IMG/VR virus record: IMGVR_UViG_3300028886_000059
Span: 52,415 to 116,414 of that record
Strand: one strand, 5' to 3'
Length of the DNA: 64,000 nt
DNA from: a virus
Lineage: Duplodnaviria; Caudoviricetes
Part shown: one piece after another, positions 1,135 to 39,051 of the stretch
How the letters are laid out: each line of letters begins with the position of its first letter
Numbering within the stretch: position 1 is the stretch's first letter
Program-made: the position numbers and the translations under genes
Notes under the pieces: model-generated
Database searches by the model: none
What the model saw: only the letters and a program-made list of their open reading frames with translations
What the model was told of the DNA's origin: nothing

Positions 1135-2490
1135 TTATTTGATTGCAATCTTACTATTCTTCTTTGTCACCTTTAGATTCTTCACTATCTTACCCAGCAG
1201 CTTGCCGAGCGTGTAGTAGCGGGCAGCGTCGATGGCGTGATTCCACTTGTCAACGGGAACGTTGATATAGTTTCCATCCTTATCCTTATCCCAAACGTAG
1301 TTGCGCAATTCCTCTTGCAGGTCGATGGAATCTTCCGTAACGAAGATGTCATCATAACTCTGCATCTTGTCAATGCCAGCCACTATTGAGCCATTCGGCT
1401 TCTGAACTGGATATATCATTATTCCACCAAGGGCGATTTCGTCGATGAGTCGCGGGTCTGCGCTATCGGCGAACACCATCAATCCACTATACGGCTTCAA
1501 GAACTCGATGATGTCCTTTGACAGCATTCCAGTCCTGTAGCACAGCAGTTTTATATAAAGCCTGTTATCCCATATTCCGCACATCACAATGGCCGTTGGG
1601 TCATGTGTGTAACCGAAGTCTATTCCGAGCGCAACATGCTTGCACTGCGTCGGGAACTCCTTCACGATACCCCATTTCTTGAACACAGCACCTTCCGCAA
1701 CATCAGCCCATTGGCCGATGACGATGTGCGCATACCTTTCAGGGTCATTGCGCTTCATGGTTTCCACGTTCTCAAGGAACTGCGGGGATAGGTTCTCTAT
1801 GTTGTCAAGGTATGTCGTATGGATATGAAGCACGTCGGGATGCGTCGAAATCTGCACTGGCACACCGTCGAAGTATTCAATCCTGTGCGTGTCCTTTATG
1901 TATTTCTGATAGATGAAGTGTCCGCTGTCCGTCGGGTTCATCACGATGATGATGAGGTTCTGAATGCCCAAGGTACGGATGGAAAGCATGATTTTCTCGA
2001 AGTCATCAAACGAAGTCCACTCTTCCGCTTCATCACAGACAAACACCGTCAGGCCGTGGATTGATTTCAGCTTTGCCGTCTGATTGCCCGATGAGGTCTT
2101 GATGCCTCGGAACATGATATGTGAGCCAGTCTGCTTGTTGATGACATCCTTCTTTGTGGCACGGAAATACTTCTGCGTACCCTCCATCTCTATCTTCTCC
2201 AAAAATTCGGGGATGACAGAAATATCGGCTGATACCATCGTATAGCGGGCGCAAAGAATCTGATGTGCAAGCAATTTCGCATCATCGCGGGGGCTCGGCA
2301 CGGCTTCAAAGGTCAGGCGTTCCAAGAAGGTTTCGACATTGAAAGACTTACCGCTTCCACGGCCTCCAGTGACAAGCACAATCATCTTTCTGCCGTTGTT
2401 CAGATAGAGAGGATGGTAAACAGGCTGCACCTTGATACCCTTGCGCACCTGCCCTCGTAAAACCTTCCGTCTATCTGCTACCCTTGTCAT
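1135..2490 (-). CDS. terL: Terminase large subunit (PBSX family)
   Basis: Walker A GGRGSGKS, Walker B FVCDEAEE, nuclease motifs GIDFGY, DSADP, NHAIDAARY. Confidence 0.95.
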   Translation of the reverse strand: MTRVADRRKVLRGQVRKGIKVQPVYHPLYLNNGRKMIVLVTGGRGSGKSFNVETFLERLTFEAVPSPRDDAKLLAHQILCARYTMVSADISVIPEFLEKIEMEGTQKYFRATKKDVINKQTGSHIMFRGIKTSSGNQTAKLKSIHGLTVFVCDEAEEWTSFDDFEKIMLSIRTLGIQNLIIIVMNPTDSGHFIYQKYIKDTHRIEYFDGVPVQISTHPDVLHIHTTYLDNIENLSPQFLENVETMKRNDPERYAHIVIGQWADVAEGAVFKKWGIVKEFPTQCKHVALGIDFGYTHDPTAIVMCGIWDNRLYIKLLCYRTGMLSKDIIEFLKPYSGLMVFADSADPRLIDEIALGGIMIYPVQKPNGSIVAGIDKMQSYDDIFVTEDSIDLQEELRNYVWDKDKDGNYINVPVDKWNHAIDAARYYTLGKLLGKIVKNLKVTKKNSKIAIK

Positions 2491-4868: not shown

Positions 4869-5537
4869 TTAGTTTGAGCCGCCCAAAGCTGTACGCAAGG
4901 CAGCTGCTATCGTATTTCCGCTACCTCGGCGCAATACCCTTTCGCGGTCACTCATCATCCTATCCCAATCATCGTATGTCTTAACCCTGTCAAGGTTGAT
5001 TTCCCTGCTTGGGCTATAGCTTCGCATCATTGCCGACAATCCTTTTGGAAGGGTCATGGCAACGACGGGGAGGCGTGTGCGGCCATCCCAATCAGACGGT
5101 GCTAAATCGTCATCCCATTCTACTTTTCCGATGGCTTTAGCACCATATTTCGCATACATATTCTGTAATCCACCACCATAGCAATCCAGCTTTCGGCCAC
5201 CCCTTGCAGAAGCGAATGCCATGATGTTGGGCATCCTTCCGCGTGTCCTGCTGAATACGGCCTCCACATTGCCGTCGCTTGTTATGGCGAGTCCTGTCTT
5301 GTGGTCTTTAGAAAGGTAATAAGCCGTGCCACTGTTACGGTTATTCCTGAACTGTTTCTTTGTATGGGTGTCAACCATCCAGCCGTGCCTGTTTTTCTTC
5401 TTGGCATAGTTGATGGCATTCTTGAAAGCCTTTGGCGTTGCACGTTCAAATTCTACATGAGAATGACGAATACCCTTTCTTGTCAGGGCATTCTCGACGC
5501 GCTTGTTTGCTTTTTCAATATCGCTTATGTACCTGAC
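4869..5537 (-). CDS. GNAT-like protein, proposed GTC start (222 aa; first ATG at 5378 gives 169 aa)
   Basis: Frame is open 53 codons upstream of the ATG, back to GTC at 5537, and fills the gap to the upstream gene; GGRKLDCY..LQNMYAKYG resembles GNAT motifs. Confidence 0.65.
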   Translation of the reverse strand, partial: VRYISDIEKANKRVENALTRKGIRHSHVEFERATPKAFKNAINYAKKKNRHGWMVDTHTKKQFRNNRNSGTAYYLSKDHKTGLAITSDGNVEAVFSRTRGRMPNIMAFASARGGRKLDCYGGGLQNMYAKYGAKAIGKVEWDDDLAPSDWDGRTRLPVVAMTLPKGLSAMMRSYSPSREINLDRVKTYDDWDRMMSDRERVLRRGSGNTIAAALRTALGGSN

Positions 5538-5550
5538 TCAGCCGTTCCGT

Positions 5551-5915: not shown

Positions 5916-6170
5916 TTAGCCCTCAGAGCCTGCGGCAGCACGAAGGGCGGCGGAGCGCAAGGCTGCACCACGAACACCACGCGCCCGCATAGCGGCTACG
6001 TTCTGACGTGCTTGTCGGGCGAATGCCACACGAAGGTCTTGACGACGCTGTTCACGGTTTCCCCAACCTGCACGGCCAGCCGCATAACGGCCACCATTTG
6101 CCAGTCGGCGACTACCTGCACCGTTCACGTTTGACGTGATACCAGTGATTCGATTGATTCTGTTTCTGAC
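5916..6170 (-). CDS. Small Arg/Ala/Gly-rich protein, proposed GTC start (84 aa)
   Basis: Frame open from GTC 6170: VRNRINRITGITSNVNGAGSRR...AAAGSEG; the only in-frame ATG lies far downstream. Confidence 0.65.
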   Translation of the reverse strand, partial: VRNRINRITGITSNVNGAGSRRLANGGRYAAGRAGWGNREQRRQDLRVAFARQARQNVAAMRARGVRGAALRSAALRAAAGSEG

Positions 6171-6203
6171 TCAGCATTCAAATTAAAGGGTTCGACATTA
6201 TTG

Positions 6204-6614
6204 TTAGTTGTCTGAATGGGCATCCTGTTCCTCGTCGAAGATTTCACAGTTCTCTTTCTGCATGACTTCGCCGAGTTCATACTGCATTTGCGTAACATAG
6301 TAGGTCTCGCCGTTATCCACGAAGGTAAGCGGCTCGCCAGTCTTTTCGTCATCCATCTGAACGACCTTAATCCCAACGACCTGCACCAGCAGACGGGGGG
6401 CATTCTTCTGACGGCCATTGATAAGCTGCAAGGCATCGTAGCCCACAACCTCGACATCGCTTGTGCCGTCGCCGTTGTCCTTTTCCACCAAATACTGCTT
6501 GGCGTTACGCGGGTAAACAAAGCGGTGCTCGACCTTTTGCTCACCCTTCAAGATTTTCTTGAAACTGTCGCGCTTGATTTGTAGCGTCAGTACATCTAAT
6601 CCTTCTAAATTCAT
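6204..6614 (-). CDS. ASCH/PUA-like domain protein
   Basis: LTLQIKRDSFKKILKGEQKVEHR resembles the ASCH GxKxxExR motif. Confidence 0.7.
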   Translation of the reverse strand: MNLEGLDVLTLQIKRDSFKKILKGEQKVEHRFVYPRNAKQYLVEKDNGDGTSDVEVVGYDALQLINGRQKNAPRLLVQVVGIKVVQMDDEKTGEPLTFVDNGETYYVTQMQYELGEVMQKENCEIFDEEQDAHSDN

Positions 6615-6647
6615 TTCAATTCCGATTTAATTGTTACTATAATTTTG

Positions 6648-6720
6648 TTGCGGGAGCAGGGCTCGAACCTGCGACCTCCAGTAAGTCAAACTGTTAAGCT
6701 ACCAACTGCTCCATCCCGCG
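6648..6720 (-). tRNA. Initiator-type tRNA body with GAC (Val) anticodon
   Basis: CGCGGGA TG GAGC AGTTGGTA GCTT A ACAGT TTGACTT ACTGG AGGTC GCAGG TTCGAGC CCTGC TCCCGCA A; C1:A72 mismatch, A11:U24, A73. Confidence 0.85.
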
Positions 6721-6884
6721 ATTTTCGGCAAAGTTACACATATTACTATTGTCATGTGAATCTATACCTACATTATGTTTCACCAATTTATATTAGTGAA
6801 AGAATCGCGGTGTTTTGCAGCTATTTCACTTCCATCTATTCAATCATTTTGCTTTATATTTCACCCAGCGGGCGCATTTATATT

Positions 6885-6999: not shown

Positions 7000-7932
7000 T
7001 TACCATTCCGCAAAGATGTTATGACTGGCATTCACGACTTGCACGGAGTACTGAACACGGCCATCCACCTTGTTTCTGATGCTGTCTTTCCAGTATATCC
7101 TCGACTTCGGGGCTTTCGCTGCCACAATCTCCTGCACGTCATTGACGAACTTCACTATGCCGTCAAGCGTGATTGGCTTCTTGTTGTGCTTCTTGCCGCT
7201 TTCCAGCCCTATCTTATAGACATCGCAGAATCCCAATGTGGCCTTTATCATCTCCAGCGAATCATCCAAGTCTATCACAGGCTCGATGCTGGCAAAGGTA
7301 TGAACGCCGTATTCTTTGACCTTCGCCATCGCTTCCACACGCTGCATGTTCGTTGACGCATTCGGCTCAAGGTCATCCCTGCCTGTCAGCGTGAAACCGA
7401 CGCACAGGTTCTTACCGCCATTGACCAGCAGACGATGCCCACCGATTCCGTACACCCACTCCGAGCGTTTCGTCAGCATGGTAACTGGCACTGGAGGCAA
7501 ATCGTTTCTTCTGCTTCCATCCTCGTTACACCCCAATGCGATATAGGCACACCGCATGAATGTATAGAAGGTATCGACTGGCTGCTGTAGGCACGGGTCG
7601 CTGCTGAACGTAAAGAAGATGCCACGGCCATCTGCCATGATTCTTCCCCTGTACTTATCCAGTTCCTTCTCAAATACCTGCACGGCCTTGTTACATCCTA
7701 CGATGAATGCGAGTTTTCTTGAAGCGTCGCAGTCATTCTTGAACTTGACATCCTTTGCCGTCAGCTGAAACTCCTTTTTCAGTTGCGGGATTTTCTGACC
7801 CATTCCGTGACCTAACACGCCTTTCTTGCAGTAGCAATACTCACAGTCGTTTGAACACCCGACAAAGATATTTGCCGCCCAAGGAGCGTATTCGCGGGCT
7901 TTTCCCGCTGGCTGATACACAATTTTTCCCAT
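7000..7932 (-). CDS. Radical SAM protein
   Basis: CSNDCEYC (CxxxCxxC); SIEP motif. Confidence 0.85.
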   Translation of the reverse strand: MGKIVYQPAGKAREYAPWAANIFVGCSNDCEYCYCKKGVLGHGMGQKIPQLKKEFQLTAKDVKFKNDCDASRKLAFIVGCNKAVQVFEKELDKYRGRIMADGRGIFFTFSSDPCLQQPVDTFYTFMRCAYIALGCNEDGSRRNDLPPVPVTMLTKRSEWVYGIGGHRLLVNGGKNLCVGFTLTGRDDLEPNASTNMQRVEAMAKVKEYGVHTFASIEPVIDLDDSLEMIKATLGFCDVYKIGLESGKKHNKKPITLDGIVKFVNDVQEIVAAKAPKSRIYWKDSIRNKVDGRVQYSVQVVNASHNIFAEW

Positions 7933-9097: not shown

Positions 9098-9727
9098 TCA
9101 TAACCATTCGATTTTATTGTTTGTGATATAGTAGTGTGACTTGCAGGGAAATTCAAAGTTCCCTACAGACGGGCGCATCGTTACCGTTCCATCATCGTTC
9201 TTTGTCAGACTCCAGCCGCCAGCCTTGAACGGCATGACTACCAACTCGCCACATCCACAGGCGCACAGGTGGGATGTCGTTTCAAACTTTTCGCTGATAT
9301 ACAGTTTCCCGTATTCCAGCTGATGCGGCAAATGCTCGACAAAGACAGGCTCGATTCTTTCAAGTGGCTTTCCAAGCGTTTTCTCATTGTGAAGTTCAAT
9401 CCTGATGGCCTCCTGTAATGGCGGCAGAATCTTCGCGGCAAATCGCTTGCACGATGCCTCGACTTTTCGGCCTGTTGCTGTGTATGATATTCCGCTATAC
9501 ATCTTGTCACCGAAATAGTCAACACCGATATTAAGGATGAACTCGCGAAAATCATCCCTGCCTGTGCTGCCCCAGCAGAAATTGAAATTGCCCCAATCTG
9601 TGACAGCGAAGAAATAGCCGTCGCCAGTCAGAATTACACGGCCAAGAAAGCCGCCAAACTCATTGTGAAGAATATACATCCACACAACAACACCGTTTCC
9701 GTGATTATTTGTTATTACATTTTTCAT
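9098..9727 (-). CDS. Two-domain protein with C-terminal DUF6527-like domain
   Basis: Start MKNVIT at 9727; HLCACGCG...W...PSVGN...CKSHY. Confidence 0.65.
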   Translation of the reverse strand: MKNVITNNHGNGVVVWMYILHNEFGGFLGRVILTGDGYFFAVTDWGNFNFCWGSTGRDDFREFILNIGVDYFGDKMYSGISYTATGRKVEASCKRFAAKILPPLQEAIRIELHNEKTLGKPLERIEPVFVEHLPHQLEYGKLYISEKFETTSHLCACGCGELVVMPFKAGGWSLTKNDDGTVTMRPSVGNFEFPCKSHYYITNNKIEWL

Positions 9728-9728
9728 T

Positions 9729-9998
9729 TTAATCCAATTTGTGATATACATGAAACCACCTGTTATCCAGTGTGCGCACCGTACCGATAAACTCCAGCTT
9801 GCCGCGCAACATCTGACGTTCCTCGTACATGATGACCTGAACATCCTCAAAGTCATCATTACCCAAGTCTATCTCCGCAAACAGGCAGATAGTCGGCAAA
9901 AGGTTTTCCACCGTCAGAATCCTGTACCCCTTCGGCATCGTCACCTTCTGCACGACGTTACTCTGCGCCTGTAGCGGATATTTCATTATCGTTTTCAT
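9729..9998 (-). CDS. Hypothetical phage protein
   Basis: Operon packing. Confidence 0.7.
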   Translation of the reverse strand: MKTIMKYPLQAQSNVVQKVTMPKGYRILTVENLLPTICLFAEIDLGNDDFEDVQVIMYEERQMLRGKLEFIGTVRTLDNRWFHVYHKLD

Positions 9999-25710: not shown

Positions 25711-25920
25711 CTACTGCTTGACGAATATCACATTCTTTCTGTCCTTTCGCTTGTCAGCCTTGCATTCACCGTGATAGTTCCACACGTTCATGCGGTTGCA
25801 GTGCTGATGACGATAGAAACAGCCATCACAACTCTTAATTTCTGACTCCTTGACCTGCAAAGAAACCGACCTGTTTCTGTCTGTGCGGTCATTGTAAACT
25901 TCACCAATTTGCCTTTCCAT
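25711..25920 (-). CDS. Small Cys-rich hypothetical
   Basis: Paralog of 7934-8173. Confidence 0.65.
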   Translation of the reverse strand: MERQIGEVYNDRTDRNRSVSLQVKESEIKSCDGCFYRHQHCNRMNVWNYHGECKADKRKDRKNVIFVKQ

Positions 25921-25922
25921 AA

Positions 25923-26459
25923 TTATATAGTTTTGAATTTATAACCATGCACAGTGCCGTTTCTTGAAAGCGCACCCGATATTTGATTCTTCGGGATGCC
26001 GAGGTCAACGGCTGCGGCCTTGATAGACGGGTATTCCTTCCCTGTTGTGACACAAAGGACTGGCTTTCTTACTACCACCTTGCCGAACCTGCAATTAGGG
26101 TCATGCACCAGCCTGTAAGCCGTCTGCCTGTACTGCTCTTTTCGCTTTTGCCGACTTTCCTCCGACCATTCCGACATGGGCTTGAATGTTGACGTGCCTT
26201 TCTTCATCGGCTGTGTGTACTTCGTGCGCTTATATGCCAGTTCATGCGTCCTGCCCTCAAGCCATAACTTATGATACTCGTCGTTATACATCCATTTCAG
26301 GCCATAGTACAGATGACCAGTCTTGCAGGCATCGCTAATCTTGCCTGCTGTCAGGTTGTATTTCCGTGCCGCATCGACTATCCTTTCAAAATAGCCGCAC
26401 ATCGAACCGTCAGCATCAACGGCCACGATGTCCTTTGTTCGTTTGTCTTTCTTTTCCAT
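25923..26459 (-). CDS. Protein with two NUMOD1-like DNA-binding repeats
   Basis: F..IVDAAR...ISDAC...YGLKW and YPSIKAAA...IS.AL...HGYKF; start MEKKDK. Confidence 0.7.
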   Translation of the reverse strand: MEKKDKRTKDIVAVDADGSMCGYFERIVDAARKYNLTAGKISDACKTGHLYYGLKWMYNDEYHKLWLEGRTHELAYKRTKYTQPMKKGTSTFKPMSEWSEESRQKRKEQYRQTAYRLVHDPNCRFGKVVVRKPVLCVTTGKEYPSIKAAAVDLGIPKNQISGALSRNGTVHGYKFKTI

Positions 26460-26461
26460 AG

Positions 26462-26602
26462 TCGAGGGAGCAGGGCTCGAACCTGCGACACACACAATCC
26501 ATGTGTAACTTCATGTATGCGAGGCTGCTATTCTTGCGCTCGTATTTACAGCCATCCTCCCGTTCCATATACGGGTGTGCTAACCAACTACACCATCCCT
26601 CT
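26462..26602 (-). ncRNA. tRNA-like RNA with very long variable region
   Basis: GAGGGA/TCCCTC acceptor, GTGT/GCAC D-arm, CCCGT-ATATGGA-ACGGG arm, about 72-nt insert, GCAGG-TTCGAGC-CCTGC T-arm. Confidence 0.7.
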
Positions 26603-38672: not shown

Positions 38673-38688
38673 CTTCTTTTCCTTTTAG

Positions 38689-38759
38689 TTGGAGAAACGG
38701 GAGTCGAACCCATACAAACAGACCCAAATTCTGTTGTGCTACCATTACACCATTCTCCA
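38689..38759 (-). tRNA. tRNA-Gln(TTG)
   Basis: TGGAGAA acceptor, ACAGA-ATTTGGG-TCTGT, GGGTTCGACTCCC. Confidence 0.9.
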
Positions 38760-38979
38760 GTATGACGGCCTTTTGAGCCGCCCACCTTGAACACCGCCAT
38801 GTCGTCACCGTCAACAGCCGCAGGATTTAAGCGGCCATCCACCCACATGTTACCCTTTCCGATTTTTTGGGGATTGCGCAGATACTCTCACATGCTTTAG
38901 GCTCGCTTTCGGTATAGGTCGCGCCCCTTAACGCTTCCAAATGTACTCGCTTGTGGTGCGTGTTCTGATACAAGACTTG

Positions 38980-39051
38980 TAGCCACAGGCAGAATCGAAC
39001 TGCCCTTCCAAGGTTGAAAACCTTGTGTCCTAACCGATAGACGATGCGGCC
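38980..39051 (-). tRNA. tRNA-Glu(TTC)
   Basis: GGCCGCA acceptor, CAAGG-TTTTCAA-CCTTG, GGCAG-TTCGATT-CTGCC. Confidence 0.92.

Follow-up and report, generated by a model that had tools for sequence, protein, structure and literature searches.

A phage tRNA with an initiator-type body and a valine anticodon is a candidate private initiator for genes opening on GUC or GUU

What use would a phage of gut Bacteroidales have for a tRNA that carries the body of a bacterial initiator on a valine anticodon, in an anticodon arm unlike that of normal tRNAs? The question is raised by a 73-nt gene in the window, by which we mean the whole 64-kb stretch of DNA analyzed here, the 3' part of a virus record of 116,414 bases that was judged 98% complete. 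tRNA positions 1 to 73 correspond to window positions 6720 to 6648 on the minus strand. ARAGORN called the gene Val(GAC) at 6647-6720, just as the original prediction had expected annotators to do, the Rfam tRNA model (RF00005) gave it 49.2 bits against a gathering score of 29, and covariance model R1 gave it 93.4 bits. The features of the locus are collected in Table 1.

Table 1. Features of the tRNA locus and of the genes that follow it in the window
Feature	Position	Strand	Basis or remark
Bacteroides-type -7 promoter element TAACTTTG	6729..6736	minus	Direct reading; ends 8 nt before tRNA position 1
Initiator-bodied tRNA, anticodon GAC	6648..6720	minus	ARAGORN, Rfam, direct reading, family alignment, covariance model R1
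First gene 3' of the tRNA, 136 aa, phrog_625, weakly ASCH-like	6204..6614	minus	Normal ATG, 33 nt after the tRNA
Putative private start signal 1, GA-GTC (GTC = 6170-6168)	6168..6172	minus	Directly after an in-frame TGA; context GCTGAGTCAG
c0 gene, small arginine-rich protein, 84 codons + stop	5916..6170	minus	Opens on GTC
Putative private start signal 2, GA-GTC (GTC = 5537-5535)	5535..5539	minus	Directly after an in-frame TGA; context GCTGAGTCAG
phrog_2563 gene, 222 codons + stop	4869..5537	minus	Opens on GTC

Direct reading gave an acceptor stem CGCGGGA/UCCCGCA with a mismatched C1xA72, U8 and G9 followed by a D stem GAGC/GCUU with A11:U24, an anticodon stem ACAGU/ACUGG in which A27xG43 is unpaired, a variable loop AGGUC, and a normal T arm (GCAGG-UUCGAGC-CCUGC). 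The anticodon loop, UUGACUU, occupies 6689-6683, with G34 A35 C36 at 6687-6685, U37 at 6684, and U38 at 6683. A73 is followed by C74 at 6647 and then by AAAA, CCA not being encoded. The features that the original prediction had listed (U37, U38, the A27:G43 mismatch, the missing CCA, and intact acceptor, D, and T arms) were all present, and its word "chimeric" fits the anatomy, in which acceptor, D, and T arms of the initiator type are combined with a foreign anticodon arm. The 1:72 mismatch and A11:U24, which it had not listed, are marks of an initiator-type body.

We compared the tRNA with host initiators, represented by five genes from three Bacteroides and Parabacteroides genomes. Host tRNA-fMet and the phage tRNA have in common the CGCGG acceptor, the unpaired C1xA72, G2:C71, C3:G70, A11:U24, A73, the D arm, the variable loop AGGUC, and the T loop. 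CCA is likewise unencoded in four of the five host genes and in all members of the phage family (28 distinct sequences), and its absence here is thus ordinary. The difference lies in the anticodon arm, which in the host reads UUGGG-CUCAUAA-CCCAA, with three G:C pairs, anticodon CAU, and A37 A38, whereas that of the phage family is NNNNU-YYRACUU-RNNNN, closed by U31.G39 (by U:A in the window), with anticodon GAC or AAC and U37 U38. Bacterial initiators are characterized by a run of three G:C pairs at 29-31:39-41, which in E. coli is needed for the P site and for selection by IF3. The window tRNA has A29:U41, G30:C40, and U31:A39 at these positions, and across the family they are mostly A:U, C:G, and U.G. 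Since the run of three G:C pairs is absent family-wide, canonical P-site selection is in doubt unless something compensates for it.

With the large terminase subunit (window 1135-2490, minus strand) as the query for relatives, we retained 80 loci, 49 of which carry a homologous tRNA, called "Val" by ARAGORN, 2.5 to 5 kb upstream of the terminase. A core alignment comprised 28 distinct tRNA sequences in 82 columns, the homologues having been found without reference to the loop. On the cloverleaf, 94.6% of paired cells were standard, against 37 to 47% when the partners were slid; both sides had changed in 12 of the 21 pairs, with covariation in all four stems; and the covariation score of 0.527, compared with 0.177 in shuffles, was reached by none of 500 shuffles. 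Position 1:72 was unpaired in 28 of 28 homologues although the bases themselves vary (CxA, CxC, UxC, AxA). Invariant throughout were G2-G5 with C68-C71 (G2:C71, C3:G70, G4:C69, G5:C68), A11:U24, U31, A35, C36, U37, U38, A73, and C74, while position 34 was G or A. Only the window phage and L001, the relative closest to it, have the A27xG43 mismatch; in the remaining 26 distinct members the pair is standard. The conservation of the loop, which had been named beforehand as the check, holds in these 28 distinct homologues and in the 51 known later; together with the pairing and the 12 two-sided changes, it bears out the earlier view that the intact arms reflect selection rather than decay.

The family is widespread. 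A search with a degenerate pattern found it in the genomes of about 30 Bacteroidales species, in genera that include Bacteroides, Parabacteroides, Phocaeicola, Prevotella, Alloprevotella, Hallella, Dysgonomonas, Barnesiella, and Muribaculaceae, and the same kind of search found it in more than 103 viral contigs among the matches listed. Parabacteroides goldsteinii DSM 19448, Bacteroides sp. KFT8, and Phocaeicola plebeius TF10-3AC are candidate cultured lysogens with the family. The collected set amounts to at least 177 phage or prophage loci, mostly in Bacteroidales, with 51 distinct tRNA sequences, whose anticodons are GAC or AAC. A search of viral contigs with the exact body and the anticodon arm left free gave no match, and GenBank phages yielded only ordinary phage tRNA-Met genes of about 82% identity and no annotated relative.

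The tRNA lies behind an element that matches TAnnTTTG, which we take to be the Bacteroides -7 promoter consensus. Of 50 distinct family loci, 42 have an element of the form TAnnTT[TC]G ahead of the tRNA, mostly at 7 to 15 or 27 nt, and in relatives that have no tRNA the same type of element stands directly 5' of the next gene. Since no terminator-like hairpin is evident after the tRNA in the window, the tRNA appears to head an operon, in which the phrog_625 gene, small genes, the phrog_2563 gene, a gene with a PAPS-reductase domain, a ParB-like gene, and the small and large terminase subunits follow on the same strand. The ASCH label of the first gene rests on a weak Pfam match of a relative (E = 0.0043, below the cut-off). 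We considered this gene as a dedicated co-factor of the tRNA and rejected the idea, for relatives that lack the tRNA have the gene as well, and it therefore does not depend on the tRNA. Upstream of the tRNA, the gene at 7000-7932 (minus strand) matched radical-SAM and spore-photoproduct lyase weakly, in both cases below the cut-off, and the gene at 9098-9859 (minus strand) has a DUF6527 domain. Two RNA data sets touch on relatives of the locus. In one metatranscriptome run, a relative's locus was a single 12.8-kb contig, which speaks neither for nor against expression. RNA-seq reads from a related cultured organism match L045 over about 90 bases of the promoter region (6650-6739) and end their match exactly at tRNA position 1, giving way there to unrelated sequence, a pattern that is neutral on expression; the relative in the strain behind them apparently has a different junction at the start of the tRNA.

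What the tRNA might read was suggested by the genes downstream. The heptamer GAGTCAG occurs three times in the window, twice within 1.2 kb downstream of the tRNA, both times as GCTGAGTCAG; the third occurrence (25842-25848, minus strand), which an ATG gene contains in another frame, is a chance match. When the entire 116-kb genome was scanned, the two sites at 6170 and 5537 were the only credible private starts. In almost every relative, a YTGA-GTC-RG site lies about 400 to 490 nt after the tRNA and opens an open reading frame (ORF) of 47 to 84 codons. These ORFs encode one family of small arginine- and glycine-rich proteins, here called c0, which is conserved from residue 2 onward (V-R/G-x-R-I/T-N-R...) and opens exactly at GTY after NGA in every tRNA-bearing locus. 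In several c0 members, ATG, GTG, and TTG are wholly absent, and in the window the first canonical start of the c0 gene comes 14 codons in, inside conserved sequence.

Codon statistics over 99 distinct c0 ORFs agree with translation from this point. Differences at codon position 3 numbered 10,436, against 3,327 and 1,921 at the other positions, and within codons 2 to 12 alone they numbered 1,254 against 351 and 310. As judged from these substitution patterns, the coding signal of c0 begins at codon 2. The first codon was GTC in 92 ORFs, GTT in 7, and GTA or GTG in none, whereas the internal valine codons of the same ORFs were GTA (107), GTT (83), GTC (36), and GTG (22), indicating that the first codon is constrained to match the tRNA.

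Further families of 53 to 107 residues that begin V-R-R-K/R open likewise on GTC or GTT, as does the phrog_2563 gene. In the window, the latter reaches its first ATG, GTG, or TTG only at codon 54, where a conserved WMVD motif has its invariant Met. When the gene is translated from GTC, the match to the PHROG profile begins at residue 33, and Met-starting database homologues of 226 to 232 aa align over the whole 53-residue extension. In the protein Atlas the protein is present only in truncated form, beginning at residue 54. The small V-start proteins had no match in PHROG or Pfam. The V-R-R-K sites were seen in L010-L078, about 1250 nt and further after the tRNA (e.g., L037 5974 and L030 7112). 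A Shine-Dalgarno-like GAGGA stands 7 nt before GTY in 41 of 53 distinct contexts of these paralogous families, in 97 of 635 control ATG starts, and in 1 of 62 c0 contexts; Bacteroidia ribosomes are reported not to use Shine-Dalgarno-like sequences (PMC9976891).

The start sites of these genes were set by protein homology, giving 113 distinct combinations of context and tRNA. Where the anticodon is GAC, 80 starts are GTC and 22 are GTT; where it is AAC, none is GTC and 10 are GTT. This is the pattern predicted by wobble, G34 reading C and U and A34 reading U. Fisher's exact test gave 1.1e-6 for the association with relatedness ignored, the counts not being phylogenetically independent: in a tree built from the 51 tRNAs, the AAC sequences fall in at least two or three distinct places, and independent anticodon switches are few. 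One such switch can be followed. L120 carries AAC in a GAC-type body that is a few bases off that of L042, including the change of G34 to A, and GTT opens its c0 gene; L106, a near relative, has kept GAC and already has a GTT start. This suggests that the codon changed first and the anticodon followed. The tRNA is absent despite sufficient flanking sequence from L020, L052, and L031, the only three such relatives that carry homologous genes, and there the same gene block starts with ATG-GCA (M-A-K-K-R..., M-A-R-R-K..., and M-A-R-K-K-S...). The earlier suggestion that the RNA reads a special start signal thus gains on two counts, since conserved downstream genes open on GTC or GTT and the codon covaries with the anticodon.

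How far does the signal extend beyond the codon? GA occupies positions -2 and -1 in 112 of 113 distinct private starts, compared with 25 of 681 control ATG starts in the same loci, and is complementary to the invariant U38 (G.U) and U37 (A-U). GA is preceded by T, C, or A, and a stop codon alone would therefore not account for the conservation. At +4 and +5 the bases differ between starts (AG in 78 cases, GC in 13, GG in 13, and others), and where they are AG they form part of a conserved second codon, AGA (Arg). The seven-base pairing to GAGUCAG envisaged originally therefore stands on its 5' side, where GA is nearly constant and U37 and U38 are invariant, and falls on its 3' side, where +4 and +5 vary. 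Nor does the pairing reach into the anticodon stem, since mRNA position -4 does not follow changes at tRNA position 40, being C or T in 11 of the 12 cases in which position 40 is C. An eight-base pairing of mRNA -5 to -3 with tRNA 41-39, possible in most loci, was rejected because -4 stays C or T. We likewise rejected the palindrome CTGA-G-TCAG as a dimer-binding DNA site: its symmetry is not kept, as GTT sites retain G at -2 and CGA sites retain A at +4. G(-5) and C(-4), which in the window lie at 6175-6174 and 5542-5541 (minus strand), are about as conserved as GA (131 and 103 of 161 contexts) and do not covary with the tRNA. Since the tRNA does not explain them, the start signal may involve another reader.

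Taken together, these comparisons of sequences favor a valine-charged and formylated initiator tRNA private to the phage, with a replaced anticodon arm, that would start a few phage genes at GUC or GUU; we put the probability of this reading at roughly 0.8. In E. coli, valyl-tRNA synthetase recognizes A35, C36, and A73, and the unpaired 1:72, G2:C71, C3:G70, and A11:U24 are the determinants of formylation and of exclusion from EF-Tu. A promoter of its own, placed at the start of the operon that continues into the terminase genes, would drive transcription of the tRNA, which would be excised by host RNase P and 3' processing and completed at its 3' end by the host CCA-adding enzyme. Host valyl-tRNA synthetase would then probably charge it with valine through A35, C36, and A73, and the host formyltransferase would presumably formylate it and EF-Tu exclude it on account of the unpaired 1:72, G2:C71, C3:G70, and A11:U24. 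We infer that it would be placed in the ribosomal P site on GA-GUY signals, here those at 6170 and 5537, where it would read GUC directly and GUU by wobble instead of AUG. A(-1) and G(-2) are the probable partners of U37 and U38, which would give a five-base interaction in place of the missing three G:C pairs, and this extra pairing may compensate for their loss. In its strongest form, which we advance only tentatively and consider somewhat doubtful, the proposal is of a new kind of start recognition: the contact of G(-2) A(-1) G U Y with U38 U37 C36 A35 R34 would replace the G:C pairs that license entry to the P site, so that the tRNA would be accepted only on GA-GUY and would be insulated from host AUG starts.

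Other explanations must be weighed against such an initiator. The RNA could instead regulate or guide, its loop pairing with the GAGUC sites of the operon or a phage protein binding it, and so control translation or processing, while the genes start by another non-canonical route. The loop is indeed complementary to conserved GA-GUY sites, the tRNA would be co-transcribed with its targets, and the conservation of G(-5) and C(-4) makes the signal longer than a codon. However, a guide has no need of A73, A35, C36, G2:C71, C3:G70, A11:U24, and an unpaired 1:72, invariants that are determinants of charging and formylation; no longer duplex forms, as the behavior of mRNA -4 relative to tRNA 40 indicates; and ORFs devoid of any canonical start, as well as ATG in the tRNA-less relatives, would be left unexplained. 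We therefore regard this possibility, which the original prediction had raised and which the lack of pairing beyond the loop and the nature of the conserved determinants speak against, as unlikely. Some phage tRNAs are known to evade host anticodon nucleases through an altered anticodon loop, and the confinement of the change to the anticodon arm would suit a decoy or counter-defense. An initiator-like tRNA of this sort would either elude or titrate a host nuclease that targets tRNAs, or some other factor that binds initiators, and the GTY starts would have nothing to do with it. But a tRNA with anticodon GAC cannot replace the initiator at AUG, and a decoy predicts neither that anticodon and start codon should covary nor that the presence of the tRNA should track GTY versus ATG, which makes this explanation very improbable.

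The ARAGORN call of Val(GAC), the frequency with which phages carry tRNAs, and the presence of Gln and Glu tRNAs in this same phage are what an ordinary elongator tRNA-Val supplementing the decoding of GUC and GUU would lead one to expect. The unpaired 1:72 of E. coli initiator tRNA disfavors binding of EF-Tu, and it is found here in all members, on a host-initiator body and with U rather than a purine at position 37; the GTY-start genes, too, would go unexplained, and we give this idea hardly any weight. The chance is practically nil that the gene is a decaying pseudogene or an integration scar of a host initiator tRNA gene. An anticodon arm unlike that of every normal tRNA and the A27xG43 mismatch of the window copy could be taken as signs of decay, but among 51 distinct sequences in at least 177 loci every stem shows compensatory changes and the loop stays invariant, the tRNA keeps its place behind a promoter, and both of its halves are present, unlike in an attachment-site remnant.

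Other tRNA genes of the window phage and its relatives deserve mention. A second odd tRNA-like gene at 26454-26602 (minus strand), missed by ARAGORN, scored 40.1 bits with the Rfam tRNA model over 141 nt; its T arm is that of the tRNA at 6648-6720, positions 1 and 72 are mismatched (A1xG72), the anticodon loop reads AUAUGGA, and the variable region is enlarged by an insert of about 65 nt. An ATG gene begins a few bases after this tRNA-like gene. Apparently ordinary genes for tRNA-Gln(UUG) and tRNA-Glu(UUC) lie at 38688-38759 and 38979-39051, both on the minus strand. Phages of the AAC type carry a second initiator-like tRNA 3 to 4 kb downstream of the first (47.8 to 57.5 bits with model R1), at 9211-9288 in L019 and L023, 9240-9315 in L004, and 3339-3413 in L005; in L019 and L023 its anticodon loop apparently has 6 nt, and ARAGORN reported a two-base anticodon, "tc." An unrelated, GC-richer phage (L172, reverse complement 4907-4980) has an initiator-like tRNA with A1xA72 and a normal CAU anticodon, in which G29:C41 and G30:C40, two of the three G:C pairs, are kept, closure is by U31.G39, and the loop is UUCAUUU, with U37 U38. 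The ATG of the gene that follows it is not preceded by GA. U37 U38 may thus be a wider trait of phage initiators.

Initiators that start proteins with valine have been made in the laboratory. GAC/GUC initiator mutants reportedly came earlier from the Schulman and RajBhandary laboratories. When the E. coli initiator tRNA is given the anticodon AAC, it starts proteins with valine and formyl-valine and at no codon but GUU, in a system limited by charging and formylation (bioRxiv 10.1101/2021.05.25.445580; 10.64898/2025.12.21.695813). The phage tRNA, as far as sequence comparison goes, shares with it the initiator body, the valine anticodon, and target genes with a complementary GUU or GUC start. 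The engineered tRNA is a laboratory construct in which the anticodon alone was changed and the three G:C pairs and A37 were kept, whereas the phage family is natural and widespread and has a remodeled stem and loop, a conserved GA before the start, and targets of its own. Given the conserved determinants of charging and formylation and the precedent of the engineered AAC tRNA, we read the phage tRNA as a natural counterpart of these initiators. With elongator tRNA-Val(GAC) it has in common the anticodon, A35, C36, and A73, and it differs from that tRNA in its unpaired 1:72, its initiator-type body, and the pyrimidines at 37 and 38. Gut phages with stop-codon recoding carry suppressor tRNAs, and these offer a further parallel, in that the meaning of a codon is changed for phage genes only and gene finders mis-call the genes. 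Suppressors act in elongation and on stop codons, whereas the tRNA described here is proposed to act in initiation, making a sense codon the start of a few adjoining genes. The literature that we found describes engineered systems only and no natural private initiator of a phage.

As for purpose, we can only guess that it is tight, tRNA-dependent control of small basic late proteins: a need for both the mRNA and the tRNA might make their synthesis less leaky in lysogens. An N-terminal formyl-valine could, as a further guess, alter the processing of such proteins.

It is a near-universal rule in bacteria that one methionine initiator tRNA reads AUG, GUG, and UUG. If our reading is true, a natural, virus-borne second initiator that reads a valine codon for private genes would be an exception made by evolution, not by engineers, and the identity of the start codon would be reassignable in nature. 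It would also explain why conserved small basic phage genes are missing from databases or truncated in them, and it would supply a rule by which gene finders could call them in such phages. The way in which the ribosome checks initiators becomes directly testable, including the role of the three G:C pairs, of position 37, and of pairing extended upstream of the codon. For Bacteroides, an important gut genus, these phages would offer ready-made parts for orthogonal initiation.
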